64,000 bases of DNA from an uncultured Gemmatimonadales bacterium (GTDB lineage Bacteria; Gemmatimonadota; Gemmatimonadetes; Longimicrobiales; RSA9), in the NCBI GenBank assembly GCA_963741945.1, contig CAVUKA010000001.1:1024001-1088000 (forward strand), read 5' to 3'. Below the pieces are notes generated by a model. It was given only the letters and a program-made list of their open reading frames with translations, was not told the origin of the DNA and did not search any database. Positions 12,913-61,205 of the stretch are shown piece by piece (position 1 is the first letter of the stretch; each line of letters starts with the position of its first letter). A program made the position numbers and the translations under genes.

Positions 12913-12934
12913 GTGTCCGGGGGCGGGATCGGTG

Positions 12935-18508: not shown

Positions 18509-18525
18509 CGCCTGCGCGCGCGCTG

Positions 18526-18635
18526 CGGTCCCGTGCCGCCCGCGTCACCCCGCGGCGGCTTCGGGCGCAACGGCCGGGGCGCTACGGTCCCGTGCCGCCC
18601 GCGTCACCCCGCGGCGGCTTCGGGCGCAACGGCCG
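18526..18635. repeat. Direct repeat with 59-bp period duplicating the 3' end of the MFS gene
   Basis: 51-bp identical copies at 18526-18576 and 18585-18635. Confidence 0.9.
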
Positions 18636-25065: not shown

Positions 25066-25134
25066 GGGTTCCTCCGCCGATGTGGGTGATCATCCCCGCG
25101 CCACTGCTGTGGCACGGGCGCCGAAGACGGGGCT

Positions 25135-25464: not shown

Positions 25465-25635
25465 GGTACGGAGGTTCGTGGACGGACACCGGGTCTGTCA
25501 AGGAAACGTCCGGGCCGGCCCACACCGGAAGCGGAGCGCGGCGCCCCGGGCGGCGGGGCGGGACTTGCGAGCGGAGCGTCGAGCGGCCAGCATCCGCCGG
25601 GTCGGAACCACGGACCCGGAGTGCAAAGGAACCGC

Positions 25636-32038: not shown

Positions 32039-32114
32039 TCCCGGGCGACACGCCTGCGGCGGCCGCGGGCGGTGTGCGGCTCGCGAGGGCCTCTGCGGCA
32101 CGTGGGGCCGGCCG

Positions 32115-36099: not shown

Positions 36100-36182
36100 G
36101 GGGGTGCAGTTTCGGCGGCGGCGGGCGTTGGCGCAACGGCTTCGAGGGTCGATCCGCCCGCCGGCTGGGGCGCGAGGGGCCT

Positions 36183-43709: not shown

Positions 43710-44708
43710 TCACCAGCGGATCGCCGCGCTCGCCCAGGTGAACCCGCTCCCGAACGCGGTGAGCATCAGCAGGTCACCACGGTTCAGCCGCCCCATCTGC
43801 ACCGACTCGGCGATGCAGATGGGGATGGTGCCCGCCGTCGTGTTCCCGTAGCGCTGGATGTTGCTGAACACCTTCTCCGGCGGAATCCCCAGTCCCTTCC
43901 CCACCGCCTCGGTGATCCGCTGGTTCGCCTGGTGCGGGATCAGGAGGTCGATGTCCTCCACCGCGAGATCGTTCGCCTCCAGCGCCGCTCGCACCGACTG
44001 CGGCATCCGCACCACCGCGTGCTTGAACACTTCCCGCCCTTCCATGCGCGCGTAGTGCCGCCCCTCGTCCAGGTCTTCGTGGGTGATGCGCGGGAACCGG
44101 GCGGAAGCGCCCGACTCGCACCACAGCTTCTCCGCGAACCGACCGTCCGCCCACAGGTGCGTGGAGAGGATGCCCCGGTCCGGATCGTCGGTCGGGCCCA
44201 GGATCACGGCGCCCGCGCCATCACCGAAAAGCACGCTCAGGTCGCGGCCCTCGGGGCCGAAATCCATGCCCGTGGAATGCACTTCCGCGCCCACCAGCAG
44301 GATGCGGCGATACTGTCCCGTGCGGATCCACGCATCGGCCACGGAGAGGCCGTAGATGAAGCCGCTGCACTGGTTGCGCACGTCGAGGGCCGGAATGCCC
44401 CGGGCGCCCAGCTTCCGCTGCAGGAAGACGCCGCCGCCCGGGAAGAAGTAGTCCGGTGAGAGCGTCGCGTAGACGATGCAGTCGAGCTCGGAAGCGTCCA
44501 TGGAAGCGGCTTCCAGCGCGCGCTCCGTGGCCTTGAGCGCCAGGTCCGAGCCCGCCTCCTTGCCCGGCTCCACCCAGTGTCGCTCCTCGATCCCCGTCCG
44601 CTCCCGGATCCACTCGTCGGACGTGTCCCACCATCGCGTCAGCTCTTCGTTCCTGAAAACCCGCTCCGGAACGTGGAAACCCGCGCTGATGAATTCGGTC
44701 CTCGGCAT
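43710..44708 (-). CDS. fabH: 3-oxoacyl-ACP synthase III
   Basis: TSDEWIRERTGI, NQCSGF, LFGDGAGA, PHQAN, YGNT, FGSGFTW. Confidence 0.9.
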   Translation of the reverse strand: MPRTEFISAGFHVPERVFRNEELTRWWDTSDEWIRERTGIEERHWVEPGKEAGSDLALKATERALEAASMDASELDCIVYATLSPDYFFPGGGVFLQRKLGARGIPALDVRNQCSGFIYGLSVADAWIRTGQYRRILLVGAEVHSTGMDFGPEGRDLSVLFGDGAGAVILGPTDDPDRGILSTHLWADGRFAEKLWCESGASARFPRITHEDLDEGRHYARMEGREVFKHAVVRMPQSVRAALEANDLAVEDIDLLIPHQANQRITEAVGKGLGIPPEKVFSNIQRYGNTTAGTIPICIAESVQMGRLNRGDLLMLTAFGSGFTWASAAIRW

Positions 44709-44802
44709 CGTCGCCTCGCTGCTGGAAGTGGCCCCCGGGATATGGTTCGGCAATCCCATGATGCTACGGCGACGGCCGGTCCGGCAACCTCATCCGGCGG
44801 CG

Positions 44803-44818
44803 TGGCACCCGGCTTGCT
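44803..44818 (+). promoter_or_regulatory. Sigma54 promoter of PRC-barrel operon
   Basis: TGGCACCCGGCTTGCT, near-perfect consensus, about 40 bp upstream of ATG 44857. Confidence 0.85.
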
Positions 44819-44856
44819 CCTCTTTCCCGGCAGGCGGCACCAGAACAGGAGGAACG

Positions 44857-45777
44857 ATGGCACTGAGACCGATCTCGCGCGTGTCCGACTACGCGTTCCC
44901 GGACGGGGCGTGGGACGTGCGCGGGTGGCGCGTCCGGACGGGCGAGGACGCCGAAAAGGTGGGCAAGGTCGACGACATGCTCCTCGACGGGAGCGGCGCC
45001 CTCCGATACCTCGATGTGGATCTCGGGCTTCTGAAGAAGCACATCCTCGTGCCCCTGGAGCACGCCCGCGCGGACGCCGAAGAGAAGACCGTGTGGGTGG
45101 ATGGGCTCACGCAGGAGCAGCTCGAGGAGGTGCCGGAGTACGCGCTGGAACCCGAGGCGCTCGACACCGACTTCGAGCGCCGCCTGGACGCGGTGTACGG
45201 CGGCAGCTCCGCCCGGGCCCACCGCGACCTGGTCGCTCCGGAGGACCACCCGGATGGCAACCTGGACCTGCGCCGCATGGCGGACCTGGAGAAGGACTAC
45301 CGCGTGGCGGGCGAGGACCCGCGCGGCTGGACCGTGGTGGCCGCGGACGGGAACCACATCGGCCGGGTCGCGGGGCTGCTCATGGACCCGTCGGAGATGC
45401 GCGCCCGCTTCCTGGACGTGGCGGTGGATGAGGAGAAGCTCGACCTGGAGCCCGTGGATCGGCACATCCTGCTCCCGGTTGACCGCATCCGGCTGGCGCG
45501 GAGCAAGAAGCGCGTCATCGTGGGCGGCCTCCTCGCGGGGGACCTGGCGGATTACCCGCAGTACGGCGGTCTTCCCGTGAGCCGACGCACCGAGCCCGAG
45601 CTGAACGCGATCTTCGCCCGCGCCGGGATGGCCGACACGGCCGGCGCTGGCGGCGCCGGGCGAGAGGAGGCGGACGCGCGCGAGCTCCCCGACTGGCGGA
45701 CCACCGCGCTTCAGCGATTCTATGGGCCGGCTGCCCGCCCGCGCACCCGAACCACGGAGGAGGAGCGACATGGCTGA
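44857..45777 (+). CDS. Tandem PRC-barrel domain protein
   Basis: Two repeats D.RGW.V...DG...G.V..LL.D....RYLDV; AGGAGG RBS. Confidence 0.85.
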   Translation: MALRPISRVSDYAFPDGAWDVRGWRVRTGEDAEKVGKVDDMLLDGSGALRYLDVDLGLLKKHILVPLEHARADAEEKTVWVDGLTQEQLEEVPEYALEPEALDTDFERRLDAVYGGSSARAHRDLVAPEDHPDGNLDLRRMADLEKDYRVAGEDPRGWTVVAADGNHIGRVAGLLMDPSEMRARFLDVAVDEEKLDLEPVDRHILLPVDRIRLARSKKRVIVGGLLAGDLADYPQYGGLPVSRRTEPELNAIFARAGMADTAGAGGAGREEADARELPDWRTTALQRFYGPAARPRTRTTEEERHG

Positions 45778-46075: not shown

Positions 46076-47098
46076 TCAGGTGGGAGTCACCACGCTCCGG
46101 ATGGATGCCCCGCTGCGCAGGAAGTCGAACGCGTCGTCGATCTCGTCCAGGGTGAAGCGGCGGTTCACCAGTTCGGTGACCCTGACACGGCCCTGGCGCA
46201 CGAGATCGATGACGCGCGGGTAGTCCACCGGCCGGCACCCCAGCGATCCCACGATCTCGAGCTCCCGGAACATGACCCGGCCGGCGTTGAGCTCCATGGC
46301 TTTCGGGCTGTAGCCCACGAAGACCACGCGCCCGCCGGTCTTCACCGCGTCCACGGCCAGCGCCTGCGTGTCGGGGCGACCCACGGCCTCGAACGCCACG
46401 TCGGCGCCGCCATCCGTGAGCGCGCGGAGCGCCTTGTCCGGGCGCTCCACGCTGTTCGGGTTCAGCGTGGCCTCCGCGCCCAGGCGCTCGGCCCACGCCA
46501 GCTTCTCGGGCGACACGTCCACGCCCACGACGCGGGCGCCCACCACGGCGGCCATCTGCACGACGTTCAGTCCGACCCCGCCACACCCCACCACCACCAC
46601 CCGGTCACCCGGCCGGACGCGGCCGCGGTTCATCACCGCGTGGAACGGGGTGGTGAGGGCGTCGGCGATGATGGAGCCCTCCACGAGCGGGATCTCGTCC
46701 GGGAGTCGGAACACGTCCCGTGCGGGGACGGCGACGTACTCGGCGTACCCTCCGTCGATGTTGTTGCCCAGCATGATCCCGTTCCGGCAGATGTTCTCGC
46801 GGCCCGTCCGGCATGCATCGCAGTGGCCGCACGACAGCACCGCCGGGAGGAGCACGTGATCGCCCTCCAGCAGCCGCCCCGTCGGGTCGGGGCTGGCCAG
46901 CGTGCCCGCGATCTCGTGGCCGAGCACCATCGGCGGATTCTTGAAGGTGGGCGTGCCGTGGTCGAGGTAGTGGAGGTCGGTGTGGCACACCCCGCAGGCC
47001 GCCACCTTCACGAGCACCTCGCCGGCGCCCGGCTCCGGCACGGGGATGTCCTCGATGGTGAGCGGGCGGTTGGCGCCATGGAAGAGAGCGGCCTTCAT
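46076..47098 (-). CDS. had: 6-hydroxycyclohex-1-ene-1-carbonyl-CoA dehydrogenase (Zn-dependent MDR)
   Basis: CGVCHTDL, GHE, CGHCDAC..GRENIC, ADALTTPF, LGCRPVDYP; last gene of the bcr operon. Confidence 0.8.
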   Translation of the reverse strand: MKAALFHGANRPLTIEDIPVPEPGAGEVLVKVAACGVCHTDLHYLDHGTPTFKNPPMVLGHEIAGTLASPDPTGRLLEGDHVLLPAVLSCGHCDACRTGRENICRNGIMLGNNIDGGYAEYVAVPARDVFRLPDEIPLVEGSIIADALTTPFHAVMNRGRVRPGDRVVVVGCGGVGLNVVQMAAVVGARVVGVDVSPEKLAWAERLGAEATLNPNSVERPDKALRALTDGGADVAFEAVGRPDTQALAVDAVKTGGRVVFVGYSPKAMELNAGRVMFRELEIVGSLGCRPVDYPRVIDLVRQGRVRVTELVNRRFTLDEIDDAFDFLRSGASIRSVVTPT

Positions 47099-47361
47099 CG
47101 GGGCATCCTCGTGTAGACAACGCGAAAGAGGGAGAGGGCGAGCGTGCACCCGGCGCACTCGTGCGCCAGGTCATCGTCCTCCAGGGGCTCGAGCAGCACC
47201 TCCCGACCCACCGAGCGGTAGAGCGCCGCCATCTCCCCAAGACGGGGCGGGGCGCCGATGAAGCGTCGCGTCCAGCCGGCCCGCGCCAGGACCTCGTCGC
47301 GCTCCCGGACGCGCGCGCTGGCGGCCGGCCCGATGTCGAGCGCGGGCACCGGCGCGCTCAC
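47095..47361 (-). CDS. Small conserved-looking CxxC protein within the bcr operon
   Basis: 88 aa, GWTRRFIGAPPRLGEMAALYRSVGREV...ECAGC...FRVVYTR; coupled on both sides (GTGA and ATGA overlaps). Confidence 0.7.
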   Translation of the reverse strand: MSAPVPALDIGPAASARVRERDEVLARAGWTRRFIGAPPRLGEMAALYRSVGREVLLEPLEDDDLAHECAGCTLALSLFRVVYTRMPR

Positions 47362-48179
47362 GCGGCCGCGGCCTCGGCGTCCTCGGCTTCGAGCTTCTCC
47401 AGCCGGCGCCGTGCGAGGATCGCGGCGCCGATTGCGCCGGTGTACTGGACCAGCGGCTCGGGCGGCACGTTGACGCCCTCCGCCAGGTGCTCGCGCATGA
47501 CGCGCACCATGGTGGGAAAGCGCATGATCCCGCCCACCAGCGTGAACTCGGGCTCCATCTGCACGCGCTTCATGAGCCGCACGCTCTTCTCGATGAGCGA
47601 CTCCATGGCGCCCAGCATGATCTCGCCGGGCTGGCTCCCGTTGCTCACGTGATTGATCACCTCCGACTCGGCGAACACCGCGCAAACTCCGCTGATGGGC
47701 ACCGACGCCTGCGCGCCCTGGACCAGCATCCCGATCTCCTCGAGGCCATAGCCGAGATAGCGGGCCGTCTTCTCCAGGAACGCGCCCGTGCCCGCGGCGC
47801 ACTTGTCGTTCAGACGGAACGAGCGGACCTTCCCCGCGTCATCGACGCGCATCGCCTTCATCGTCTGCCCGCCAATGTCCAGCACCGTGCGGGTCGACGG
47901 AAAGAACCAGCGCGTGCCCCACGACTGCGCCGTCAGGTCGGTGGCCTGGACGTCCCGGAACGCCACCTGGTTGCGGCCGTAGCCGGTGGTGGCGGTGTAG
48001 ACCACGTCCGCGGCCGTCACGCCCGCCTCGGCCAGCGCGGAATCCAGCGCCGCGCGCGCCGCCGCTTCCAGGCGATATCCGGTCGGCACCATGCTCCGGG
48101 CCAGCAGCTGGCCGGCCTCGTCCAGGATCGCGGCCTTCGTGTACGTCGAGCCGACGTCCACTCCCACCGTGCAGGTCAT
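47358..48179 (-). CDS. Class I benzoyl-CoA reductase ATP-binding activase subunit (BcrD/BzdP-like)
   Basis: [43 protein letters not shown]. Confidence 0.85.
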
Positions 48180-49042
48180 GCCACCTCCCGCGCTGTGGCG
48201 CAGCCCCGGCCCGCATCGCCGTCCGCGGCCGCACCGGTGAGATCCCCCGCCGGGATGAGCGCTCCCTCCGCCCGCTCGAGCGCGAACAGGGCCGCGCCCA
48301 GAGCGCCGATGAAGTGGGACTCGGCCCCCACGTTCATCTCCGTGCCGAGCAGCTCGTTCAGCACGTGCACCATGGCCGGGTTCTTCGTCACCCCGCCCGT
48401 GAAGGTCACTTCCTCCTCCACGCCCACCCGCTTGAGGAGACCGAACGAGCGCTTGGCGATGGACTGATGCACGCCCAGCAGGATGTCCTCGAGCTTCCGG
48501 CCGCGCGCCAGCCACGACAGCACTTCCGACTCCGCGAATACGGTGCACGTGGTGCTGATCGGCACCGGCCGCCGGCCCCGGAGCGCCGTGGGCCCGAGGT
48601 CCGCCAGGTCCAGCTCCAGCGCCGCCGCCGCCGACTGGAGGAAGCGGCCGGTGCCCGCCGAGCACTTGTCGTTCATGCAGAAGTCCAGCACCTGGCCGCC
48701 GGCCTGCACCCGGATCGCCTTGGTGTCCTGGCCACCCATGTCCAGCACGGTCCGCGTGCCGGGGAACATCTCCGCCGCCCCGCGGGCGTGGCACACGATC
48801 TCCGTCACCTGCGTGTCGCCGAACTCCACCTTGTAGCGGCCGTACCCCGTGCCGATGACGAAGTCCACGTCGCGCCGCGCGAGCCCGGCCTCGGCCAGCG
48901 CCAGCGCGAACGCGTTCTCCGCGGCCTCCACCACGTTTGCGCCCGTGTCGATGAGGCTGCGCCCGACGATGCGACGGTCGCCGTCCACCACCACGGCCTT
49001 GGTCTGGGTCGAACCGACATCCACTCCGCCCGCGTGTCTCAT
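48176..49042 (-). CDS. Class I benzoyl-CoA reductase ATP-binding activase subunit (BcrA/BzdQ-like)
   Basis: [51 protein letters not shown]. Confidence 0.85.
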
Positions 49043-50382
49043 GCGACCTCCTCCCTTGCGGCGGCACCGCTGCCGGCGATCGCGCCGTTCATCCGCAGCT
49101 TGCGACTCTCCAGCCCCTCGAAGAACGCGTCGATGCGGTTCTTCAGCTGCGCTTCCGAGACCACGCGCTTGTCCATCATGTCGCTCTCGATGTAGAGGGC
49201 CAGGACATCGCGCTCGGCCAGGAGCACCCGCCGGCTGTCGGCCAGGCTCGTCGAGACCGTGCGGCAGCTCTTCACGGGGTGGTAGACCACGCCGTCCGCG
49301 CCGTAGCGGTCCACCGCTTCCAGGAGCAGCCGGTCCTGGAAGAGCATGGCGTCGGTGGCCCGGCGCACGCTGCGCAGGACTCCTTCGGCCAGGCTCACCA
49401 GCGGGCGCGACAGGTCATACTCGAAATCCAGGTCCAGGCCGCCGGAGGCGAACCACAGGTAGGTGGAGCTCACGAATGCGCCGCCCCACTCGCTGAACAT
49501 TGCGTGGAAGCGCGAGAAGATCGGATAGCAGGGGACGCCCACGAAGATCAGGCGGTGCCGCTCGGGCGTCTCACCCAGGGCCCCGCGGCCCTCGGCCAGG
49601 CGCAGCTCCAGCTCCTCGGCCAGGTCGCGGAAGTAGTCCGCGCCCTCCTGCGTGCCGCGCAGCGCGTTCGCCACACCCAGGTACATGGTGCCCTCGAGCA
49701 CCGCGTCGAACGCGGCGGGGGCGCGGGCGTTCAGCGCCAGCACGCGGCGGTAGTGCCGGCCCATCTCGTTGGCGTGGCCCAGCACCTCGCGAAAGCGGTC
49801 GATGTCGAAGCGCCTGCCCGTGAGCGACTCCAGCACCTGGATGAGCTCCCGCAGCTGGTTCTCCACGTACGAGAGGTCCGCGGCCGAGCCGACGCCCGTG
49901 GCGCTGTCCAGGACCGAGCGCGACTGCGGCACGTCCACCGTGAAGACCGGGACGTCGTACATCCGCTCCCAGATCTCGGCCCATTTGAGGTAGGTGTTGC
50001 ACGCGTTCGTCAGCACCGCGATGGACGGTGGCGGGATCATTCCGCGCGGGTGCTCGCCGTTGCGGCGCTGGAGCGCATAGTCGGCCTTCACGTAGCCGCA
50101 CACGTCCGGGGAGAAGCCTTCGTCCTCGGCCTGGCTCAGGTACCCGTCCGAGACCTTCTTCACCGCCGTCTGGAGCGAGTTGATCTCGGGGAAGACCGTG
50201 TGCAGGCCGAACGTGCGCAGGATCTCCGTGAGACTCCCCATGACGAAGACATACGCGGCCTGCTCCCCGGCCGAGTGGGCGTGCGTGAGCTCCTCATACC
50301 ACCGGTCGAACAGCTGCCTGCCGTGCCGGAAGGCGCGTCCGTGGATGAGCTCCGAAGTCACTGGATTCATGGGCCGCCTCAT
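49039..50382 (-). CDS. bcrB: Benzoyl-CoA reductase subunit B (2-hydroxyacyl-CoA dehydratase family)
   Basis: [54 protein letters not shown]; start 50382 or 50370. Confidence 0.8.
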
Positions 50383-51572
50383 TCGAACAGCAGGTTCTCG
50401 ACGAAGGTCTCGAGCTGGATCTGCAGGTGATCGTACGCCGTCATGTTCTCCTCGAACTCCGTCACGAAGTACGGGATCTTCTCCCGGTCCAGCGCCTGTG
50501 AGTACGCCACCTGCTCGTCCAGGCCGGGCTCGCACATCTTGGCCGCGGCCACGATCGCCGCCTCCGCCGAGGCCGCGCGGATGCGGCGAAGCAGCATCTG
50601 CTCCTTCGGCTTCCGGAGGTCGTGCTGGACCGGGCTGTACGACGATCGCTCCAGGTACGCCTCCGCCAGCCTGCCCACGGGATCCCCCGCCAGATCCACG
50701 TCCTCGGTGATCCAGCGCAGGCCGATCAGGAGGTCGTCATCCACCACGTAGACGAACTGCGCGATGGAGCGGAGCAGGTCGAGCGGCGGCTGCTCGCAGA
50801 AGCCGCCCTCGAACACCACGCGCATGCGGTCCTGCCGGCGGGCGTCACGCTCCCGGATGCGGGGAATGAGCGCGCGCAGGAGGTGATTGTGCTCCTCGCG
50901 CGTGACCAGCCCCGCCAGCGCCACCAGCGCGTACGCCTCGTCCACCGGCAACCGCCACGGCTCCTCCCGCTTGATGGTGTAGAGCTCCCGCAGCAGACGA
51001 CGATTCTCATTGAACACTGCGATGGCATCGCGGATCTCGTCGTCGCCCACGGTGCGGCCGACCACCGCTTCGATCTCGACCAGCACGCGTCGGTACTCCG
51101 CGGTCAGGAACTCGGCCGAGAAGCGGGAGTTGGGGTTCTGCGGGAAGTACAGGATCTGCGCGGGCGTGCTCACGTTCCGCTCCCAGATCCCGGCCAGGTT
51201 GCGAGCCACGTCGCAGATCGGGTGGGTGACGAACAGATCCGGCACCAGCGTCCCGTTCATGGCCAGCTCGAGCGTGGTCCGCGGAATGGAGCAGATGGCG
51301 GAGCCGAAGCGAGAATCGGCTTCCCGGCGATCCACCTGGCCGCCGCGGATCTTCACCGGGAGCATCCCCGCCGCGTGGGCCAGCTCTTCGGGGAAGTAGA
51401 CCTGGAAATGGCCCAGCACCTTGCCGCCACCCTCCCGCCACTTCCGCACGGTTGGGTACTCGACGTCCTCCACCACCTCGCGGCAGCGGGCCAGCACGTG
51501 GTCGAGCGGGTCCGAGAGATCGATGTCCAGCAACCGCTCGGGGGGTGGGATCTCGCGCCTGGGTGTCGCCAT
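50379..51572 (-). CDS. bcrC: Benzoyl-CoA reductase subunit C
   Basis: VYFPEELAHAAGMLP, ICSIPRTTLEL, ICDVARNLAGIW, GGFCEQPPL, KMCEPGL. Confidence 0.8.
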   Translation of the reverse strand: MATPRREIPPPERLLDIDLSDPLDHVLARCREVVEDVEYPTVRKWREGGGKVLGHFQVYFPEELAHAAGMLPVKIRGGQVDRREADSRFGSAICSIPRTTLELAMNGTLVPDLFVTHPICDVARNLAGIWERNVSTPAQILYFPQNPNSRFSAEFLTAEYRRVLVEIEAVVGRTVGDDEIRDAIAVFNENRRLLRELYTIKREEPWRLPVDEAYALVALAGLVTREEHNHLLRALIPRIRERDARRQDRMRVVFEGGFCEQPPLDLLRSIAQFVYVVDDDLLIGLRWITEDVDLAGDPVGRLAEAYLERSSYSPVQHDLRKPKEQMLLRRIRAASAEAAIVAAAKMCEPGLDEQVAYSQALDREKIPYFVTEFEENMTAYDHLQIQLETFVENLLFE

Positions 51573-51573
51573 G

Positions 51574-52341
51574 CTATGCGTCGCTCCAGACCGGCGCGCG
51601 CTTCTCCATGAACGCCGCCAGTCCCTCGTGAGGATCGTGCAGGGCCATCAGCTCGTCGAGGTACAGCGCGTCCGCACCCGCCAGCGCCGCCGACAGCGGG
51701 CGGTCCAGCCCCTCGAGCACGGCGCGCTTGGCCAGCGCCAGCACCGGCCGACTGAGCCCGGCGAGCGGCGCCACGTACTCGCTCACGGCCTCGCCGAACG
51801 CGTCCGCCGGGAGCACGGCCGTGACCAGACCCATCACCTGCGCCTCCTCAGCCAGGATGGTCCGGCCGGTCAGCACCAGGTCCAGCGCCCGCTGCACCCC
51901 CACCCGGCGGGGGAGGAGCGCGGCCGCCGCCGGGGGAAAGACGCCGAGGCGGATCTCCGGCTGGCCAAGCTTGGCGCCGGAACGCGCCAGGACCACGTCG
52001 CAGGCCAGCGCCAGCTCGAGGCCGCCCCCCAGCGCGGCGCCGTTCAGCGCCGCCACGACAGGGAGGTCCACCGCCAGCAGCGCACGGATGGCGCGGGAGA
52101 ACGACTCGATCATCCCCCCCACGCGCTCGGTGGTGTGGTCTGCCACGTCCACCCCGGCGCAGAACGCGCTGCCCTCGCCCGTGAGCACCACTGCGCGTGT
52201 CGCCGGATCCGCATTTGCGACCCCCACTGCCCCGGCCAGCTCGTCCAGCATCTCCGTGGTCAGGACGTTCAGCGGAGGACGGTTCAGGACCACGCGGGCG
52301 ATTGCGGTGCCGAAGTCGACGCGAAGGTGCCGGTACGCCAC
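51574..52341 (-). CDS. dch: Cyclohexa-1,5-diene-1-carbonyl-CoA hydratase (crotonase family)
   Basis: LNRPPLNVL, FCAGVDVADH, LGGGLELA, GQPEIRLGVFPP, YLDELM..D..EGL.AF; directly upstream of bcrC. Confidence 0.8.
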   Translation of the reverse strand: MAYRHLRVDFGTAIARVVLNRPPLNVLTTEMLDELAGAVGVANADPATRAVVLTGEGSAFCAGVDVADHTTERVGGMIESFSRAIRALLAVDLPVVAALNGAALGGGLELALACDVVLARSGAKLGQPEIRLGVFPPAAAALLPRRVGVQRALDLVLTGRTILAEEAQVMGLVTAVLPADAFGEAVSEYVAPLAGLSRPVLALAKRAVLEGLDRPLSAALAGADALYLDELMALHDPHEGLAAFMEKRAPVWSDA

Positions 52342-52342
52342 T

Positions 52343-53452
52343 TCACCCTCCCGCCGTGGCTTTCGCGGCATCCCCGGTTTCGACCGTCTCCACGTCGACT
52401 CCGTCGGTCCCCAGCCCGGCCCCGCACGCGCCACAGAACTGGAAATCGGCTGGAATCCCTTCCGCGCCGCACGCCGGACAGTCACGGTTCGGCGCGCCCC
52501 ACAGGAATTCGCTGGAGCCCCCGCTCGCCGCGCGCTCGCGGAGCTCCATGTAGCGCGGCTTCCGCTTCTGAACGAAAGCGCGCATTCCCTCCCACGGCTC
52601 GAGGGAGGAGTAGTGGAGCGCCAGCCAGTCGCCCGCATGGCCCACGGTCTGGCTCCAGCTGAGCTCCTTCCAGAAGTTCACCTGCTGCTTCGTGTAACGC
52701 GTGCACTCCGGGAACTGCTGCAGCAGCACCTGAACCAGCTCGTCCACCGCCTCGTCCAGCTTCTCCAGCGAGATCGCGTAGCCGTCCTCTGCGTTCTGTG
52801 CCCTCGCGATCTGTTCCGGCGACGCCCCGTCGATGAACGCTCCGTCCTTCACCACGCTCGGCACGACCCGGTTCACCAGCCCCCAGTCCAGGCATTGCCG
52901 CGGCGGGATCCGGCCGTTGACCATGAGGATCTCGCGGGCGCGGCGGTCGCCGACCAGGAGCGGAAGCCACTGCGTGGCACCGCCGGCCGCCACGCTCCCG
53001 ACGCGCGTCCCTACCTGGCCGATGTAGGCGTGCTCGGCCATCACGGCGAGGTCGCACGCCATCTGGCTCTCGTTGCCTCCGCCGACGGCCATGCCGTTCA
53101 GGCGCGCGATCGTGGGCTTCCCCAGTTGAACGATGCTTTCGATATACTCCCGGAACAGCCGCATGTATTTCCAGTAGTCTCGCGGCCGTTGCGTGTACTC
53201 GGCCTCGTACTCCTTCACGTCGCCGCCCGTGCAGAACGCCTTCGTCCCCGCGCCCGTGTAGACCACCACCCCCACCCCATCGTCGAACGCCGCGTCATGG
53301 AACGCGGTGGTCAGCTCACGCAGCGCTTCCGTGGAGTACGCGTTGTAGTTGTGGGGACGGTTCAGCGTGACGCGCGCCACCCAGTCGGCCTTCTCGTACC
53401 GGATCTCCCGGAAGTCGTACGACTCGGCGGGACGCGGCTCAAACTTCGGCAT
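52343..53452 (-). CDS. oah: 6-oxocyclohex-1-ene-1-carbonyl-CoA hydrolase with C-terminal zinc ribbon
   Basis: YNAYST, AFCTGGDVKEY..Y...P.DY..YMRLF, NGMAVGGG, GGATQWLP; tail CPACG...FCGACG. Confidence 0.8.
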   Translation of the reverse strand: MPKFEPRPAESYDFREIRYEKADWVARVTLNRPHNYNAYSTEALRELTTAFHDAAFDDGVGVVVYTGAGTKAFCTGGDVKEYEAEYTQRPRDYWKYMRLFREYIESIVQLGKPTIARLNGMAVGGGNESQMACDLAVMAEHAYIGQVGTRVGSVAAGGATQWLPLLVGDRRAREILMVNGRIPPRQCLDWGLVNRVVPSVVKDGAFIDGASPEQIARAQNAEDGYAISLEKLDEAVDELVQVLLQQFPECTRYTKQQVNFWKELSWSQTVGHAGDWLALHYSSLEPWEGMRAFVQKRKPRYMELRERAASGGSSEFLWGAPNRDCPACGAEGIPADFQFCGACGAGLGTDGVDVETVETGDAAKATAGG

Positions 53453-53503
53453 GCTCGGCTCCTTGTCAGACCATGGCACGACGGCCACCTGGGAAAACGA
53501 AAG

Positions 53504-54370
53504 TCACGAAACGGACGACCGCTCCTCACCCGCCACACCCACGGCGGATCCGGCGGCTTCGAAGCGCGGCTCCACGAACCGGTCGGCCGGCTCCGCCAAC
53601 AGCTCGTGGTAATAGTTGAACAGGCTCAGCGCGCACTCCCCCGCCCAGTCCTCCGGCTGCAACGCCCCGGGGAGGAACGGGTCCTGGAGCGGGAACTCCC
53701 GGTACTCGTGCACCAGCCGGAAGCGCCGGACGTACGCGTCCCGCGGCTCGATCGACCCCGGACCCTCCTCCTTCAGCGCCACGCACGCGTCCAGATGACG
53801 CTCTATGAACGCCTCGTAGCGCGCGTTCAGCCCGGCCAGGTCCCAGCAGCGGCCCACCAGCTCACGGGCGTCGCCAAACCCCAGGTGCGGTCCGCGGAAC
53901 ACCTCCACGTACTCCCTCACTTCCAGATCGTCCGCGATCTCACGCACAGGGCCGACGACATCGTGCGGCGTAATCCACAGCCCGTTCCCCAGCGACCCGA
54001 ACCCGAGCCACTCCAGGCGAACCCGCAGGCGGTCCCGCTGCCCCCGCTGCTCCTCCGGAATCGAATACGCCAGCAGCGTCCACTCCCCATCCCACCCCTC
54101 CGCCCCACGCGGCCGGTAGATCCGCGTCTCCCCTTCCTCCAGCAGCCGTCGGCCCCGACCCGTCAGCGCATAGTAGCTGCGACGACCCTCGCGCTCCGCT
54201 TCCAGCCACCCCTTCCCCACCATCCGCGACAGCACCGTCCGCACGTTCGTCTCGCTCAGCCCCAGCGGCTCCAGCAGCCCGATCAGGCTCCCCACCCACA
54301 CCGGTGATGGCCGGTGCAGCAGGAAATCGCCGAACAGCGTGAACACCAGGTCCTGGGGTCGTGCGGCCAT
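53504..54370 (-). CDS. paaX: PaaX-family transcriptional regulator
   Basis: LVFTLFGD, VRTVLSRM..KGWL, GRRSYYALT..G, WDGEW, LEWLGFG, CWDL, DPFLP..L.P.DW.G. Confidence 0.85.
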   Translation of the reverse strand: MAARPQDLVFTLFGDFLLHRPSPVWVGSLIGLLEPLGLSETNVRTVLSRMVGKGWLEAEREGRRSYYALTGRGRRLLEEGETRIYRPRGAEGWDGEWTLLAYSIPEEQRGQRDRLRVRLEWLGFGSLGNGLWITPHDVVGPVREIADDLEVREYVEVFRGPHLGFGDARELVGRCWDLAGLNARYEAFIERHLDACVALKEEGPGSIEPRDAYVRRFRLVHEYREFPLQDPFLPGALQPEDWAGECALSLFNYYHELLAEPADRFVEPRFEAAGSAVGVAGEERSSVS

Positions 54371-54373
54371 CTC

Positions 54374-54438
54374 TTGTCACAAATGGTTAACGATCGTAGT
54401 CTTGCTGCAATACATTGCCGGCCCGACGCCGGTGTCAA
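54374..54438. promoter_or_regulatory. AT-rich divergent promoter/operator region between paaX and maoC
   Basis: Short palindromes TTGTcACAA (54374-82), ACGATCGT (54390-97), GCAATacATTGC (54407-18); TTGACA on the minus strand at 54433-38. Confidence 0.5.
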
Positions 54439-54506
54439 GGGTCTTCATGCGGAGGCCCCGGGAACATCGGCGGACCGAGCGCCCTCGCGGATCCGGGAGG
54501 CGGACG

Positions 54507-54977
54507 ATGACGGAGGAATCCCTGACGTTCGATGACTTCGAGGTGGGGCGCACCTACCGGACGGAGAGCCGTGTGGTGACGCAGGCGGACGTGGAGGCGT
54601 TCGCGGCGGTGTCGGGGGATGCGAACCCGCTGCACCTGGACGAGGCGTACGCGGCGCAGACGGTGTTCGGCGGCCGGGTGGCGCACGGTGCGCTGGGGCT
54701 GGCGGTCGCGACGGGGCTGCTGAACCGGCGTGGGCTGACGCGGGGGACGTTGATCGCCTTTCTGGGGCTGACCTGGGACTTCGTCGCCCCGCTGGTGCCG
54801 GAGTCGGAGGTGCACGTGGCGCTGGAGGTATCATCGAAGCGGGTTTCGCGCCGCGCGGACCGGGGCGTGGTGGCCTTCTCGGCGGAGCTGCGGTCGGGCT
54901 CTGAAGTGATCCAGGCCGGGGAGCTCCGGTTCCTGGTGCGGCGGCGCGGAGCGGCCGGTGGCGTGGCGGGGACGTAG
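54507..54977 (+). CDS. MaoC/PaaZ C-terminal-like hot-dog dehydratase
   Basis: FDDFEVG, FAAVSGDANPLHLD, RVAHG; GGAGG RBS. Confidence 0.85.
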   Translation: MTEESLTFDDFEVGRTYRTESRVVTQADVEAFAAVSGDANPLHLDEAYAAQTVFGGRVAHGALGLAVATGLLNRRGLTRGTLIAFLGLTWDFVAPLVPESEVHVALEVSSKRVSRRADRGVVAFSAELRSGSEVIQAGELRFLVRRRGAAGGVAGT

Positions 54978-55164
54978 ACGTCCCTGCTCTCGCGCGGGCG
55001 GGCGCGCGGGTGCCCGCGGGCGAAACCCCTACGCGTCAAGGGGGGAAACTCCCGATACATGGCGCAGGTAAATCAGTGAATCCCCGATTGTACGGCTGAG
55101 CGTGCGGGGTAGCTTTTCAGGTGCAGGGCGGGGACACCCGGGCAGCAACTCCGGAGCGAGCCGG

Positions 55165-58100
55165 ATGATGGATAAAGGGGCCGCAGCGCGGCCAGAGAGG
55201 CAGGAGCGCGCGTCGGCGGTGCGTGAAGCCGGCGGGGCATCCAGGGGGCGGCGCCTCCTGCTTTCGGGGAACCAGGCCATCGCCCGTGGGGCGTGGGAGG
55301 CGGGGGTGCGAGTGGGCGCAGGCTACCCCGGCACGCCGAGCACGGAGATCCTGGAAGCGCTGTCGCACCTGGATGGCGTCGACTGCGAGTGGTCGCCGAA
55401 CGAGAAGGTGGCGCTGGAAGTGGCCGTGGGCGCGTCGCTGGGGGGCGCGCGGGCGCTGGCCACGATGAAGCACGTGGGCGTGAACGTCGCCGCCGACCCG
55501 CTCTTCTCGGCCGCGTACATGGGTGTGAACGGCGGGCTCGTGGTCGTGAGTGCCGACGACCCCGGCATGCACTCGTCGCAGAACGAGCAGGACAACCGTC
55601 TATTCGCCCGCCACGCCCGGCTTCCGCTGCTGGAGCCGTCCACGCCGGCGGACGCGCGTCGGTTCACCACGGCGGCGTTCGCGGTCTCGGAGCGCTACGA
55701 CACGCCGGTGCTGCTGCGGACCACGACTCGCCTGAGTCACGGTACCGGCCCGGTCGAGGCGGGTGAGCGGGAAGCAGTGGGGCTGCGGGCATACCACAAG
55801 GACCGCCAGAAGAACGTGGTCCTCCCGGCGCACGGCCGCGTCCGCCACCGCTGGATCGAGGAGGAGCGGATGCCGGCGCTCGCCGCGGAAGCGGAGCGGT
55901 GGGCGGAAGCGGAGCCGGGCGACGGCGACGTCGCCTTCATCACCGCGGGCATTCCCTACCTGTACGTCCGGGAGGCCTTCCCGGCGGCCCCGGTGCTCCG
56001 CCTCGGGATGACGTATCCGCTCCCGGAGATCGCGGTCCGGCGGTTCGCGGAGGAGCACGCGGGGAAGCGGCTCTACGTGGTGGAGGAGCTGGAGCCGTTC
56101 CTGGAGGAGCAGATCCGGGCGCTCGGGCTGGCGCTGGAAGCGCGCACCTGGCCCCGGTACGGCGAGCTGACCGTGCGGCTCCTGCGTCGCGCGGCAGGGG
56201 CTCCCGAGGAGGGCACCGCGGAGGAGACGGCCGCGAACGCGAAGGGTGCGGTCGGTGATGCGCCCCCGGTGCTGCCGTCGCGACCGCCGGCGCTGTGCCC
56301 CGGGTGCGCCCATCGTGGCGTGTTCCACGCCCTGGGACGCATGGACGCCATCGTGAGCGGCGACATCGGCTGCTATACGCTGGGTGCGCTCGCGCCGCTG
56401 GACGCCATGGACGCGTGCATGAACATGGGGGCCTCCATCGGCATGGCGCATGGCATGGAGAAGGTGCTGCCGCCGGATGAAGGGAAGCGTGTGGTGAGCG
56501 TGATCGGCGACTCCACGTTCTACCATTCGGGCGTGACGGGACTGATGGACGTGGTCTACAACCGGGGCAAGGGGACGGTGGTGGTGCTGGACAACCGGAC
56601 CACGGCCATGACGGGGCATCAGGACCACCCGGGCACGGGCCACACGCTCGGCAACGCCGAAGCGCCGCGCATCGACATCGGCGGGATCGCGCGGGCGGTG
56701 GGCGTGGACGACGTGCGCAGCGTGGACCCGTACGATCTCCTGGGCGCGTGGCGCACGCTGGACGACGCGACCCGCACGCAGGCGCCCTCGGTGGTGGTGG
56801 CCGGGAAGCCGTGCGTGCTGAAGGAGAAGGTCTCGTTCGGCGATCCGGTGTTCCTGGACGCGGACCGGTGCACCGAGTGCTTCGCGTGCACGCGGCTGGG
56901 GTGCCCGGCCATCGAGGAGAGCGATGGGCGTCTCGCGGTGAACGACCTGCTCTGCAACGGCTGCACGCTGTGCCAGCAGGTCTGCGCCGACTGCAACGCG
57001 GGGATCGACGTCTCGCTCATGCTCGAGCTGGTGGACCAGGGGCGGCTCTCGGACGCGCTCGAGCTGGTGCTGCGCTCGAACCCGCTGCCCGCCGTCTCCG
57101 CGCGCGTCTGTCCGCACCCCTGCGACCACGACGTGAACGCCCTCGGGTTCCCGCAGGCGGCTACCTATGCGGCCCGGCACCCGTCGCTCGTGGAGCGCTT
57201 CCCCGACGGCGCCAGGAAGATTTCGGTGCGTGCGGTGGAGCAGTTCCTGGGCGACTGGGCCATCGAGAACTACCCGGCCGACGCGCTTTCCCCCGCGGAG
57301 GAGATGGGCCGCTCCGTGGCGGTGGTCGGATCCGGGCCGGCCGGCCTGTCGGCGGCGTGGCACCTCCGGCGCAAGGGGTGGCGCGTCACCGTGTTCGAAG
57401 CCGACGAAGCCCCGGGCGGCATGCTGCGGAGCGGGATCCCCCCGTTCCGGCTGGCGCGGGAAGTACTGGACGCAGAGCTGGGCCGGTTCACCGCTATCGG
57501 CATCGAGTTCCGCACGGCGGCCAGGATCGGTCGGGACATCACGGTGGCAGAGCTGTCCGAGGAGCATGACGCCGTCATCATCGCAGTGGGCCGGCACGCG
57601 CCGCGGACCATCCCGCTGGAAGGGGCCGAGGCGTACGGCTCGTCCGTGCTGGGCGGCCTGGAATTCCTGCGGCGTTTCAACGCAGGCGAGGCGGTGCCGC
57701 TGGGTCGCCGTGTCACGGTGATCGGAGGGGGGAACACGGCCATCGACTGCGCGCGCGCCGCGCGCCGGCTCGGTGCCACCGTGGACGTGGTGTACCGGCG
57801 GACAGAAGCCGAGATGCCGGCCATCCCCGACGAGGTGGAGGAAGCGCGGGAGGAAGGCGTGACGTTCCGGTTCCAGAGGAGCCCCGTGCGGGCGCTGGGA
57901 GAGGGCGGTCGCCTGACGTCGCTGGAAACCATCGCCATGGCGCAGGGCGACCCGGACGAGAGCGGTCGGCGGCGCCCGGACCCGGTGGCGGAGAGCGAGG
58001 AGGTCGAGCCCTGCGACGCGGTGATCCTGGCCGTGGGCGAGGACACCGACCTGGCGTTGCTGGCAGGGAGCGGCATCCGGGCGGGCGACCGGATCGACGT

Positions 58101-58254
58101 CAACTTCGCCGGTGCCACATCGGTGCCCGGCGTGTTCGCGTGCGGTGATGCGGCGTTCGGCCACGGCACGGTGACGCAGGCGGTGGCCACGGGCCGCCGC
58201 GCGGCCGAGCTGGCGAGCAACCCGTTGAAGAAAGGGGCGACCCGTGAGCGATAA
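55165..58254 (+). CDS. iorA: Indolepyruvate:ferredoxin oxidoreductase alpha subunit fused to a GltD-like FAD/NAD(P)H oxidoreductase
   Basis: GNQAIARG, YPGTPSTEI, MKHVGVNVAAD, SSQNEQD, LCPGCAH, GDIGCY, GDSTF, two ferredoxin motifs; then NPLPAVSARVCPHPC, GSGPAG, IGGGNTAIDCAR, YRR, GDAAFG. Confidence 0.85.
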   Translation: MMDKGAAARPERQERASAVREAGGASRGRRLLLSGNQAIARGAWEAGVRVGAGYPGTPSTEILEALSHLDGVDCEWSPNEKVALEVAVGASLGGARALATMKHVGVNVAADPLFSAAYMGVNGGLVVVSADDPGMHSSQNEQDNRLFARHARLPLLEPSTPADARRFTTAAFAVSERYDTPVLLRTTTRLSHGTGPVEAGEREAVGLRAYHKDRQKNVVLPAHGRVRHRWIEEERMPALAAEAERWAEAEPGDGDVAFITAGIPYLYVREAFPAAPVLRLGMTYPLPEIAVRRFAEEHAGKRLYVVEELEPFLEEQIRALGLALEARTWPRYGELTVRLLRRAAGAPEEGTAEETAANAKGAVGDAPPVLPSRPPALCPGCAHRGVFHALGRMDAIVSGDIGCYTLGALAPLDAMDACMNMGASIGMAHGMEKVLPPDEGKRVVSVIGDSTFYHSGVTGLMDVVYNRGKGTVVVLDNRTTAMTGHQDHPGTGHTLGNAEAPRIDIGGIARAVGVDDVRSVDPYDLLGAWRTLDDATRTQAPSVVVAGKPCVLKEKVSFGDPVFLDADRCTECFACTRLGCPAIEESDGRLAVNDLLCNGCTLCQQVCADCNAGIDVSLMLELVDQGRLSDALELVLRSNPLPAVSARVCPHPCDHDVNALGFPQAATYAARHPSLVERFPDGARKISVRAVEQFLGDWAIENYPADALSPAEEMGRSVAVVGSGPAGLSAAWHLRRKGWRVTVFEADEAPGGMLRSGIPPFRLAREVLDAELGRFTAIGIEFRTAARIGRDITVAELSEEHDAVIIAVGRHAPRTIPLEGAEAYGSSVLGGLEFLRRFNAGEAVPLGRRVTVIGGGNTAIDCARAARRLGATVDVVYRRTEAEMPAIPDEVEEAREEGVTFRFQRSPVRALGEGGRLTSLETIAMAQGDPDESGRRRPDPVAESEEVEPCDAVILAVGEDTDLALLAGSGIRAGDRIDVNFAGATSVPGVFACGDAAFGHGTVTQAVATGRRAAELASNPLKKGATRER

Positions 58255-58981
58255 GACGAGGGAGTCGGGATCCGGGGACCCGCAGGTCGCGGCCACGGCC
58301 GTGGAAGAAGCCGGCGCGGACGCCGCAGCTCGCTCCGAGCGGGTGTCCGACCGCAGCGGCGGCCTCCCCCCCACCGGCCACGGCGATGTGATGAACATCG
58401 TGCTTGCGGGCGTTGGCGGTCAGGGCTCCGTCCTCGCCACCCGGGTGCTGGCCACGGCGGCGGCGATCGCGGGGCACCAGGTCGTGACCTCGGAAGTGCA
58501 CGGCATGTCGCAGCGCGGCGGAACGGTTCTGACCACGGTGCGCTTCGGCGACTCGGTTCTGTCCTCCTCCATCCCGGAGGGCGAAGCCGACTTCCTGGTG
58601 GCCTTCGAGCGCCTCGAGGCCGCGCGGCACCTGTCCCTGGTGGAACCCGGCGGGATCGTGCTGGTGAACGACCAGCGCATCGCGCCGAGCATCGAATCGC
58701 TGAAGACCGCCGGCTACCCCCGCGACCTCGAGCCGAGTGCGGAGGCGCGCGGCATCACGCTGCTGACCTTCCCGGCGCTGGCGCTGGCCAGGGAGCTGGG
58801 AAACGAGAAGCTGTCCAGCACGATCATGCTGGGCGCGCTGTCGAACTACCTGTTCATTGCCCGGGAGCAGTGGCTGGAAGCGATCCGGCGGACGGTCCCG
58901 CCGAGGACGGTGGAAGCGAACGAAGCCGCGTTCGACACGGGCGCCGAGTGGATGGTGGGCCCCGCGGCGTTCAGCTTCTGA
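58244..58981 (+). CDS. iorB: Indolepyruvate:ferredoxin oxidoreductase beta subunit
   Basis: GVGGQG, SEVHGMSQRGG, FERLEAAR; start may instead be ATG 58391. Confidence 0.85.
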   Translation: MSDKTRESGSGDPQVAATAVEEAGADAAARSERVSDRSGGLPPTGHGDVMNIVLAGVGGQGSVLATRVLATAAAIAGHQVVTSEVHGMSQRGGTVLTTVRFGDSVLSSSIPEGEADFLVAFERLEAARHLSLVEPGGIVLVNDQRIAPSIESLKTAGYPRDLEPSAEARGITLLTFPALALARELGNEKLSSTIMLGALSNYLFIAREQWLEAIRRTVPPRTVEANEAAFDTGAEWMVGPAAFSF

Positions 58982-60077: not shown

Positions 60078-60108
60078 GACGCGTCCCCGCCTCCCTCGCA
60101 TGCCCGCC

Positions 60109-61038: not shown

Positions 61039-61205
61039 GCCGGCAATATGCCCGCGCGGGGAATCGGGTGCCAGTCAGGCCCGGTCTACCGGCGGGTAAG
61101 GGATTTCCCCGCCCCGTCGCGGTGAATCCTCCTGATTGCCGCTCGCACGCACGGGAGCTTAGGCTGCCAGCACGGCCAGAACCGAACCAAGCGAGGGTAC
61201 CTCTT

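Follow-up and report, generated by a model that had tools for sequence, protein, structure and literature searches.

Three types of class I benzoyl-CoA reductase are distinguished, namely BCR, MBR (methyl-BCR) and BZD, and the available excerpt of the source describes these enzymes as studied almost only in denitrifying Proteobacteria (PMC11971306). Azoarcus sp. CIB uses a bzd cluster for benzoate and an mbd cluster for 3-methylbenzoate; in the latter the reductase genes lie beside genes for a hydratase, a dehydrogenase and a hydrolase (MbdW, X and Y), the regulator is the TetR-type MbdR, and MbdM is listed among the operon products (excerpt of PMC4424350). In the present study a stretch of 64,000 nucleotides from an uncultured Gemmatimonadales bacterium (GenBank assembly GCA_963741945.1, contig CAVUKA010000001.1, positions 1,024,001 to 1,088,000), here called the window, was analyzed with a focus on an operon of nine genes at window positions 46076-54370. 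This operon very probably specifies a class I reductase of the MBR type, which would dearomatise aryl-CoA esters at the expense of ATP, together with three kinds of ring-opening enzyme. The bcr, bzd, bad and mbd clusters each contain a ferredoxin gene, that of the mbd operon presumably being mbdM.

Operon structure and gene content

The ORF (open reading frame) listing and the codon-position G+C revealed nine intact genes on the minus strand. A preliminary description of this DNA had already proposed a tightly coupled minus-strand operon running from paaX to had, and this was borne out, including the gene order, by the ORF list and the junction sequences. From the first gene to the last the operon consists of:

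53504-54370, minus strand: transcriptional regulator of the PaaX family, 288 aa, heading the operon (TIGR02277 and Pfam PaaX, PaaX_M and PaaX_C)
52343-53488, minus strand: Oah-like crotonase of ring-hydrolase type with a C-terminal zinc ribbon, 381 aa (best NCBIfam model TIGR03200)
51574-52341, minus strand: Dch-like enoyl-CoA hydratase, 255 aa from its GTG start (TIGR03189, Pfam ECH_1)
50379-51572, minus strand: MbdN-like gamma subunit of the reductase, 397 aa, 'bcrC' in the preliminary description (solved chain 9g87_B)
49039-50382, minus strand: MbdO-like beta (catalytic) subunit of the reductase, 447 aa, 'bcrB' in the preliminary description (solved chain 9g87_A)
48176-49042, minus strand: MbdQ-like ATPase alpha subunit, 288 aa (solved chain 9gai_D, Pfam BcrAD_BadFG)
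47358-48179, minus strand: MbdP-like ATPase delta subunit, 273 aa (solved chain 9gai_C, Pfam BcrAD_BadFG)
47095-47358, minus strand: small conserved CxxC protein, 87 aa, GTG start (junctions and alignment; no curated family)
46076-47098, minus strand: Had-like Zn-dependent alcohol dehydrogenase, 340 aa (TIGR03201, Pfam ADH_N and ADH_zinc_N)

Five junctions have overlaps of 4 nt (ATGA or GTGA), namely gamma/beta, beta/alpha, alpha/delta, delta/small and small/had; the small gene begins on the stop of the mbdP-like gene (GTGA) and ends on the start of the had-like gene (ATGA). The junction sequences further show spacers of 1 nt at oah/dch and dch/gamma and of 15 nt at paaX/oah, and for the Dch-like gene they make the GTG at 52341, behind GGGAGG, the most likely start rather than an upstream ATG. 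The G+C content is about 70% throughout the window (0.685-0.71 in the operon vs 0.66-0.75 in the rest). Chance can be excluded as an explanation of this gene set, because the family scores reach E values of 1e-38 to 1e-153 and the same gene order is kept in other genomes. A sigma-70 promoter scan gave 0 sites, and a terminator scan gave 4 sites vs 2.4 expected, with none directly after had. Rfam and tRNA scans of the window gave no matches.

Type of the reductase

The subunits were compared with solved protein chains by phmmer searches of the PDB, in which 3-methylbenzoyl-CoA reductase is represented by entries 9g87, 9gai, 9gal and 9gba; this is a comparison of scores and not a tree with named Bcr, Bad and Mbd references. 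Each of the four proteins was nearest to the corresponding Mbd chain, and not to Bzd, dehydratase or double-cubane proteins. The gamma subunit matched MbdN (9g87_B) with 514 bits (E 2.6e-153), vs 124.3 bits for HadC and 101.8 for BzdN, and the beta subunit matched MbdO (9g87_A) with 449 bits, vs 121.4 for HadB and 78.4 for BzdO. For the ATPase subunits, alpha scored 370.8 bits with MbdQ (9gai_D) vs 224.8 with HadI, 210.8 with HgdC and 176 with MbdP, while delta scored 283.6 bits with MbdP (9gai_C) vs 181.1 with MbdQ and 167 with the best dehydratase or activator chain. The lengths of gamma, beta, alpha and delta (397, 447, 288 and 273 aa) are close to those of the solved chains (388, 445, 269 and 273 aa).

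Four adjacent genes encode two HGD-D subunits (beta and gamma) and two different BcrAD_BadFG ATPases (alpha and delta), these being Pfam families common to dehydratases. As in class I reductases the two ATPase genes are distinct, and each is orthologous to a different Mbd ATPase chain; the preliminary description had likewise listed two activases. Judged by these matches the reductase belongs to the MBR (Mbd) type and not to the bcr, bzd or bad type. The choice of label between benzoyl-CoA reductase and 2-hydroxyacyl-CoA dehydratase is also settled by the match to the solved chains, which likewise upholds the earlier grouping of the B/C-like subunits with benzoyl-CoA reductases. The preliminary description had compared the cluster with bcr, bzd and bad only; the difference from these three stood, but the known MBR type, to which the enzyme belongs, had been left out of consideration.

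Among the equivalog models of NCBIfam, those for benzoyl-CoA reductase C, B, A and D scored best, a generic acyl-CoA dehydratase-activase domain model scoring higher for both ATPases. The BZD models TIGR03190-03192 stayed below their cut-offs (97.2/453.8, 81.4/448.6 and 197.1/380.2 bits), while BzdN, BzdO and BzdQ of another Gemmatimonadota metagenome-assembled genome (MAG), locus L068, passed as positive control. NCBIfam ranks the models for (R)-2-hydroxyisocaproyl-CoA dehydratase and for the Bzd type lower than those for benzoyl-CoA reductase; the HadB and HadC models reached 146 and 156 bits vs cut-offs of 750 and 700. Both ATPase alignments, of alpha and of delta (21 sequences each), keep Cys127 and Cys166 throughout, and these are positions that we take to be those of the bridging-cluster ligands, as in HgdC. 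In the printed alignments Cys95, Cys128 and Cys373 of beta align with Cys95, Cys128 and Cys380 of BzdO, the ligands of the catalytic aqua-[4Fe-4S] cluster (excerpt of PMC11971306), and all five cysteines of gamma are common to the MbdN chain.

The likeness to the Mbd system thus comprises four subunits of matching length, best matches to the corresponding chains, shared cysteines and, as in Azoarcus sp. CIB, the company of hydratase, dehydrogenase and hydrolase genes. The window differs in having a PaaX-type instead of a TetR-type regulator, in that no ferredoxin gene was found in it, and in its extra conserved small CxxC gene, its zinc-ribbon Oah-like enzyme and its Gemmatimonadota host. At residue 131 of beta the window has Tyr where the solved MbdO has Phe; in the environmental clade, proton delivery or the fit of the substrate may not be as in the MBR studied so far. 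With BcrCBAD of Thauera aromatica the window shares the best NCBIfam models for gamma and beta and the order C-B followed by the ATPases, but the four models score far below their cut-offs, and the short alpha subunit (288 aa) matches only positions 230-432 of the 432-position BcrA model. The BZD type (BzdNOPQ; solved BzdNO 8s02) belongs to the same BCR/HAD radical enzyme family and its three catalytic-cluster Cys ligands align. However, the BzdN and BzdO scores are only 102 and 78 bits, His131 of BzdO is replaced by Tyr, gamma has five cysteines while six ligate the [8Fe-9S] cluster of BzdN (excerpt of PMC11971306), and a separate Bzd-type set, of which BzdN, BzdO and BzdQ pass their cut-offs, is present in the Gemmatimonadota MAG L068. 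The dehydratases HadBC/HadI and HgdAB/HgdC share the Pfam families HGD-D and BcrAD_BadFG and the principle of ATP-driven electron activation (excerpt of PMC11971306), but score only 121-225 bits, have one ATPase gene where the window has two, and have other neighbours.

A tblastn search of plasmids for named reference reductases gave only matches of at most 31% identity. A phenylacetyl-CoA ring reductase was considered and set aside by reasoning, as a thioester that is not conjugated to the ring should not support the chemistry.

Ring-opening enzymes

The benzoyl-CoA pathway enzymes Dch, Had and Oah each form the best NCBIfam match of one operon gene, and the three classes co-occur with the reductase. 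For the Had-like protein TIGR03201 leads the next model (IolM, 211.3 bits) by 48 bits. The other NCBIfam models matched by the Oah-like protein are BadI (162.7 bits) and MenB (162.5 bits), and its nearest solved structures are MenB enzymes, matched over the N-terminal 190 residues only. Two CxxC motifs in the tail were found in 40/41 orthologues of the Oah-like protein, the lone exception looking like a frame read-through in the extraction, vs 0/45 other crotonase matches. By this signature the Oah-like protein is a distinct zinc-ribbon subfamily. The three genes are filed here as Dch-like, Had-like and Oah-like only, a designation that follows their model scores (given below).

A different set of partners was observed in a Chloroflexota locus (L044; L044:5400-7369 and 18110-18607), where the same MBR-type reductase occurs with a canonical Oah (557 bits vs a cut-off of 464), a short-chain dehydrogenase/reductase instead of the Zn-dependent Had, and a PaaI-type thioesterase. 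Between phyla, the accessory set is exchanged.

Occurrence and conservation in Gemmatimonadota

The nearest homologues of the gamma subunit, 72-88% identical among the 119 listed besides the window's own, carry, where an organism is given, the names of Gemmatimonadetes, Gemmatimonadota or Longimicrobiales MAGs, plus one 'soil metagenome'. Their protein names are 'benzoyl-CoA reductase subunit C' from the Joint Genome Institute (JGI) and '2-hydroxyacyl-CoA dehydratase' from the NCBI pipeline. For the independent housekeeping protein EttA (16850-18508) all 27 organism-labelled matches among the best 120 were Gemmatimonadota, Longimicrobiales or Longimicrobiaceae, the top match being 89% identical.

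A scan of one genome per species revealed relatives in at least 590 stretches. The best 80 of these, all from MAGs, were studied as loci: 56 are from Gemmatimonadota, 16 from Chloroflexota, 2 from Acidobacteriota and 1 each from Binatota, Pseudomonadota and Bacteroidota, with 3 unlabelled. In a quick maximum-likelihood tree of gamma sequences with 85 rows, for which six distant gamma-like (BzdN-like) sequences of these loci served as outgroup, the window clustered with L002, L001 and L005, which are Gemmatimonadaceae and Longimicrobiales MAGs, with a value of 87 in the Shimodaira-Hasegawa-like approximate likelihood ratio test (SH-aLRT), below the threshold for a star. The assignment of the window to Gemmatimonadota is supported by EttA and the reductase tree, and it probably belongs to Longimicrobiales. 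The genome is therefore not that of a studied proteobacterial degrader, in keeping with the 'probable Gemmatimonadota genome' of the preliminary description.

The cassette was traced by tblastn of the window proteins against the 80 loci, with loci having enough flank as denominators. In Gemmatimonadota the genes for O, Q and P follow N in 35/35 loci, the small ORF follows mbdP in 24/35 and had follows in 25/35. Upstream, dch is present in 40/48, the zinc-ribbon oah in 33/48 and paaX in 29/48 loci, and the divergent maoC gene (see below) in 15/48. The whole nine-gene order was found in 14/30 Gemmatimonadota loci with both flanks vs 0/13 from other phyla. The arrangement in the window is phylum-typical and not an oddity. 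Nor can the cluster be regarded as rare or unannotated, since homologues are abundant in MAGs and JGI already names a benzoyl-CoA reductase subunit C.

In the literature, one Gemmatimonadota MAG is reported among 49 with near-complete gene sets for lignin-monomer mineralisation, the phylum being 'rarely reported on this function' (excerpt of PMC11704145), and according to the available part of a 2025 preprint most Gemmatimonadota MAGs have at least one gene of the benzoyl-CoA pathway. In the excerpt of another study neither bcr nor bam is recorded for 37 genomes of the FCB (Fibrobacteres-Chlorobi-Bacteroidetes) superphylum, Longimicrobium terrae among them (PMC10936416). A literature search on benzoyl-CoA reductase with Gemmatimonadota or Gemmatimonadetes yielded passing mentions only: neither the cassette, its type and its accessory genes nor the anaerobic degradation of aromatics by Gemmatimonadota was the subject of any study found. 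The earlier statement that the trait is not characterised in this phylum therefore agrees with the literature searched. Not found described in it were the PaaX-type regulator with its palindrome, the 87-aa CxxC protein, the absence of a ferredoxin gene and the neighbouring IorA-GltD fusion.

Proposed mechanism and alternative explanations

A scheme can be proposed in which the MbdQ-like and MbdP-like ATPases would form a heterodimer, with Cys127 and Cys166 of both chains carrying a bridging [4Fe-4S] cluster. An electron would come from a low-potential donor, have its potential lowered by ATP hydrolysis and travel via the MbdN-like subunit to the MbdO-like subunit with its [4Fe-4S] cluster (Cys95, Cys128 and Cys373), where benzoyl-CoA or a ring-substituted analogue would be reduced to a cyclic dienoyl-CoA. 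The Dch-like enzyme would then add water, the Had-like enzyme would oxidise the alcohol, and the zinc-ribbon Oah-like enzyme would cleave the ring to yield (substituted) 3-hydroxypimelyl-CoA. The PaaX-like protein would repress its own operon at the palindrome upstream of paaX, from which it would probably be released by an aryl-CoA thioester.

Several observations weigh against this scheme. The benzoyl-CoA reductase equivalogs TIGR02259-02263 all stayed below their cut-offs: BcrC (TIGR02263, gamma) with 273.2/421.15 bits, BcrB (TIGR02260) with 204.5/486.55, BcrA with 202.8/578 and BcrD with 141.9/312.85. The same holds for the Dch-like (TIGR03189, 181.4 bits vs a cut-off of 292.5, with generic enoyl-CoA hydratase models reaching up to 172.2), the Had-like (TIGR03201, 259.7 vs 338.65) and the Oah-like protein (TIGR03200, 202.8 vs 464.45). 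The Oah-like protein is only 30% identical (100/333) to the bona fide Oah of the Chloroflexota locus (L044:5400-6533), which passes the cut-off with 557 bits, and carries the extra C-terminal CxxC...CxxC zinc ribbon. At the position of the acid/base His131 of BzdO, beta has Tyr and the solved MbdO chain Phe. No ferredoxin-type ORF (CxxCxxCxxxC-P-like motif) was found near the reductase in the window (44-62 kb), nor in 53 loci (0/53), and no AMP-forming CoA ligase, a benzoate-CoA ligase included, was seen in the 64-kb window. Finally, in 6/56 Gemmatimonadota loci (L049, L050, L053, L061, L068 and L070) a second, distant reductase set lies directly upstream of the MBR-type reductase. In L068, the only one of the six that was annotated (L068:1852-9780, then 9941-14097), the BzdN, BzdO and BzdQ of this set pass the equivalog cut-offs. 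A single genome can hold two class I types side by side, since L068 pairs a Bzd-type with an MBR-type set, and the adjoining second set hints that the MBR-type enzyme may serve another substrate. An 880-aa GltD-like/HoxU-like (BzdV-like) protein was also seen to follow the Bzd-type set of L068.

The core of the proposal appears to hold: an ATP-dependent aryl-CoA dearomatising operon of known MBR type, common among the phylum's MAGs and in part already identified by automatic annotation. The 'complete upper benzoyl-CoA pathway' of the preliminary description is a reasonable reading of the enzyme classes present, but it goes beyond what the scores show, as all equivalogs (BcrA-D, Dch, Had and Oah) are below cut-off and the Oah-like protein shows 30% identity. 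A class I reductase with another natural substrate, for example a benzoyl-CoA with a methyl, hydroxy or halo substituent on the ring or another aryl-CoA or partly reduced aryl-CoA, is possible but less probable; the divergent Dch-, Had- and Oah-like enzymes might then be tailored to the substituted ring. This is suggested by the name of the nearest characterised enzyme, 3-methylbenzoyl-CoA reductase, by the failure of all three enzymes to reach the cut-offs of the benzoyl-CoA pathway models, by the separate zinc-ribbon subfamily of the Oah-like protein, and by an active-site position with an invariant Tyr in the beta orthologues of the fetched loci (74/74), at which the solved MbdO chain has Phe. 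The six Gemmatimonadota loci in which the MBR-type enzyme is paired with a second set (Bzd in L068) moreover mirror the situation in Azoarcus sp. CIB. However, no second reductase is visible in the 64-kb window, and a substrate cannot be fixed from sequence alone. Moreover, the MBR enzyme is said to reduce benzoyl-CoA as well, and the title of Tiedt et al. 2018, on this enzyme, terms it 'catalytically versatile'.

That the operon instead encodes a 2-hydroxyacyl-CoA dehydratase with its activator, at work in amino-acid fermentation with IorAB, phosphate butyryltransferase and butyrate kinase, is highly improbable. NCBI names near homologues '2-hydroxyacyl-CoA dehydratase', Pfam resolves only HGD-D and BcrAD_BadFG, which are common to both enzyme groups, and IorA/IorB, ptb and buk are indeed nearby. 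Against this stand the scores of 121 and 124 bits for HadB and HadC vs 449 and 514 for MbdO and MbdN, and a cassette that holds Dch-, Had- and Oah-like genes and not a CoA-transferase or 2-hydroxyacid dehydrogenase. Dehydratases use one homodimeric activator, whereas the window has two different ATPase genes, each orthologous to another Mbd chain. A horizontally acquired or decaying remnant without present function is hardly credible either. Relatives are found in several phyla (Chloroflexota with 16/80 loci, Acidobacteriota, Binatota and others), for which reason the gene family must have moved between lineages, but the nine frames are intact with coupled starts and stops, the G+C of the operon is like that of the rest of the window, gamma nests among Gemmatimonadota sequences, and the nine-gene order is kept in 14/30 loci of the phylum.

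A more far-reaching proposal is that of a self-contained Gemmatimonadota dearomatising system, with the 87-aa protein as a fifth component (an electron carrier or assembly factor taking the place of the missing ferredoxin), and with the PaaX-like repressor and IorA-GltD tying ring reduction to aryl-CoA esters derived from aromatic amino acids. This proposal is considered unlikely; if it is true, the role of the phylum in soils and sediments would be that of a widespread anaerobic consumer of aromatic carbon that has been overlooked. For the MBR-type dearomatising operon itself, the significance lies in a conserved, phylum-typical cassette in Gemmatimonadota, an abundant phylum of soil and sediment. 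If the cassette is active, Gemmatimonadota would take part in the turnover of aromatics derived from lignin, amino acids or pollutants under anoxic conditions. Public annotation of the enzyme is inconsistent, with '2-hydroxyacyl-CoA dehydratase' at NCBI vs benzoyl-CoA reductase at JGI. Concrete handles for biochemistry are offered by the accessory genes, which encode the small CxxC protein, the zinc-ribbon hydrolase and the PaaX-type regulator that goes with the palindrome.

The small CxxC protein

The 87-aa protein is kept in 34 fetched loci, and G28, W29, R32, Y47, G51, C68, C71 and R84 are invariant in an alignment of 35 sequences, with the motif GWxRRF...LYxxLGxEV...CxxC...V(I/V)YTR. Conservation of this kind marks the small ORF as a genuine gene. 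When 1.84 billion representative proteins were searched with a profile, 977 representatives of the family were obtained at E <= 1e-3, and 599 with E <= 1e-10. The top 150 (P0241-P0390) are all stand-alone proteins of 66-132 aa, so that an informative fusion was not seen. Pfam and NCBIfam hold no family for it: in Pfam at E <= 1 the best family matched 2/35 members. In a protein atlas the best score was 0.89, to unnamed clusters. A confident AlphaFold model (predicted local distance difference test, pLDDT, 82.8) shows three strands alternating with helices, and Foldseek found no match to this model in the PDB at E <= 0.001, the best E value being 0.63.

The gene follows mbdP even where had is absent (e.g. 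in L011 and L049), which indicates that the protein goes with the reductase. A predicted complex of the MbdQ-like, MbdP-like and 87-aa proteins scored 0.30 vs a mark of 0.32, without controls, which speaks neither for nor against binding. A role of the small gene as replacement of a ferredoxin gene was tested for: an ORF with a 2x[4Fe-4S] motif within 1.5 kb downstream of mbdP was found in 0/29 loci with the small gene and in 0/24 without it, so that the two do not show a complementary pattern.

PaaX-type regulator and upstream palindrome

In E. coli PaaX responds to phenylacetyl-CoA as inducer. Its operator is TGATTC-N27-GAATCA and the inducer is the first CoA-thioester intermediate of the pathway (excerpt of PMC9493321). 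The paaX product of the window scores 251.4 bits with TIGR02277, vs a cut-off of 264.55, while Pfam PaaX, PaaX_M and PaaX_C all pass their gathering scores. A candidate operator lies in the paaX/maoC intergenic region:

54375-54412, strand not assigned: candidate operator, an imperfect palindrome with core ACGATCGT at 54390-54397

On the plus strand the arms of this palindrome are TGTCAC and GCAATA, each 10 nt from the core, with 9/12 arm matches, and it ends a few bases short of the paaX start codon. A composite palindrome TGTCAC-N8/10-CGNNCG-N8/10-GTGACA is common to the regions upstream of paaX across the loci. With at least 8/12 arm matches it occurs in 30/40 such regions, compared to a mean of 0.81 regions and a maximum of 4 in 200 shuffles, an enrichment that is somewhat circular because the motif was spotted by eye on part of those sequences.

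The regulator resembles PaaX of aerobic phenylacetate catabolism in its three Pfam domains and in a candidate operator with two hexamer arms far apart. It differs in heading an operon for an anaerobic-type reductase and in its arms TGTCAC/GTGACA around a CGNNCG core, and the intergenic region lacks the E. coli box: TGATTC-N27-GAATCA, allowing up to 3 mismatches, gave 9 matches in the window vs 8.1 expected, and none in 54371-54506. The PaaX-like protein is probably an autoregulated, aryl-CoA-responsive repressor acting at the palindrome. A literature search on PaaX in combination with benzoyl-CoA reductase turned up only papers on the aerobic phenylacetate pathway.

Neighbouring genes and electron supply

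On the other side of the palindrome, genes on the plus strand run away from the operon:

54507-54977, plus strand: MaoC-type (R)-hydratase, divergent from paaX (Pfam MaoC_dehydratas; best NCBIfam match the C-terminal part of PaaZ, 69.4 bits)
55102-58254, plus strand: IorA-GltD-like fusion, 1050 aa, start codon uncertain (TIGR03336, 647.4/650.9 bits, residues 52-629; NF009410, 359.6 bits, residues 629-1042)
58229-58981, plus strand: IorB, beta subunit of the same oxidoreductase (stop-to-stop frame, match from residue 53; NF005322, 202.4/237 bits; TIGR03334, 151.5/205.8 bits)

The IorA part of the fusion corresponds to the alpha subunit of an indolepyruvate-type 2-oxoacid:ferredoxin oxidoreductase and the GltD-like part to an NAD(P)H/FAD/FeS module. 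IorA-type genes lie at most 10 kb from the reductase in 9/80 loci, in at least four different arrangements. IorA is unfused in L044 and L068 (601-633 aa), and in L044 a PaaI-type thioesterase is situated between IorA and IorB. IorA-GltD/IorB may be connected with the operon as a source of electrons or of substrate. In one reading the oxidoreductase would provide low-potential electrons, a task performed by 2-oxoglutarate oxidoreductases in Thauera and Azoarcus; in the other it would convert aromatic 2-oxoacids to aryl-CoA esters.

Just one CoA-ligase-like gene was seen in the window, which encodes an ADP-forming acyl-CoA synthetase (10610-12868, plus strand; TIGR02717, 558.8 bits vs a cut-off of 567.15). 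The G+C of the window peaks in the region 32000-36200 (0.75 at 32-34 kb), where the four candidate frames 32169-33854, 33422-34402, 34580-34996 and 35312-35716 gave no Pfam match. Close to the end of the operon, at 44476-45777 on the plus strand, a 433-aa PRC-barrel protein is encoded, which scores 98 bits vs a cut-off of 200 with the model of photosynthetic reaction-centre subunit H and is probably not PuhA. Convergent with iorAB on the minus strand are a butyrate kinase gene (TIGR02707, 440.6 bits vs a cut-off of 289.1) and a phosphate butyryltransferase-like gene, at 58971-60185 and 60109-61074, which suggests substrate-level phosphorylation from acyl-CoA esters. A gene of the tryptophanase/tyrosine-phenol-lyase family was observed at 25090-27024 (plus strand), 19 kb from the operon, and a similar gene at L012:16445-18013, 2 kb downstream of the cassette of that locus; a link of these genes to the breakdown of aromatic amino acids is possible.

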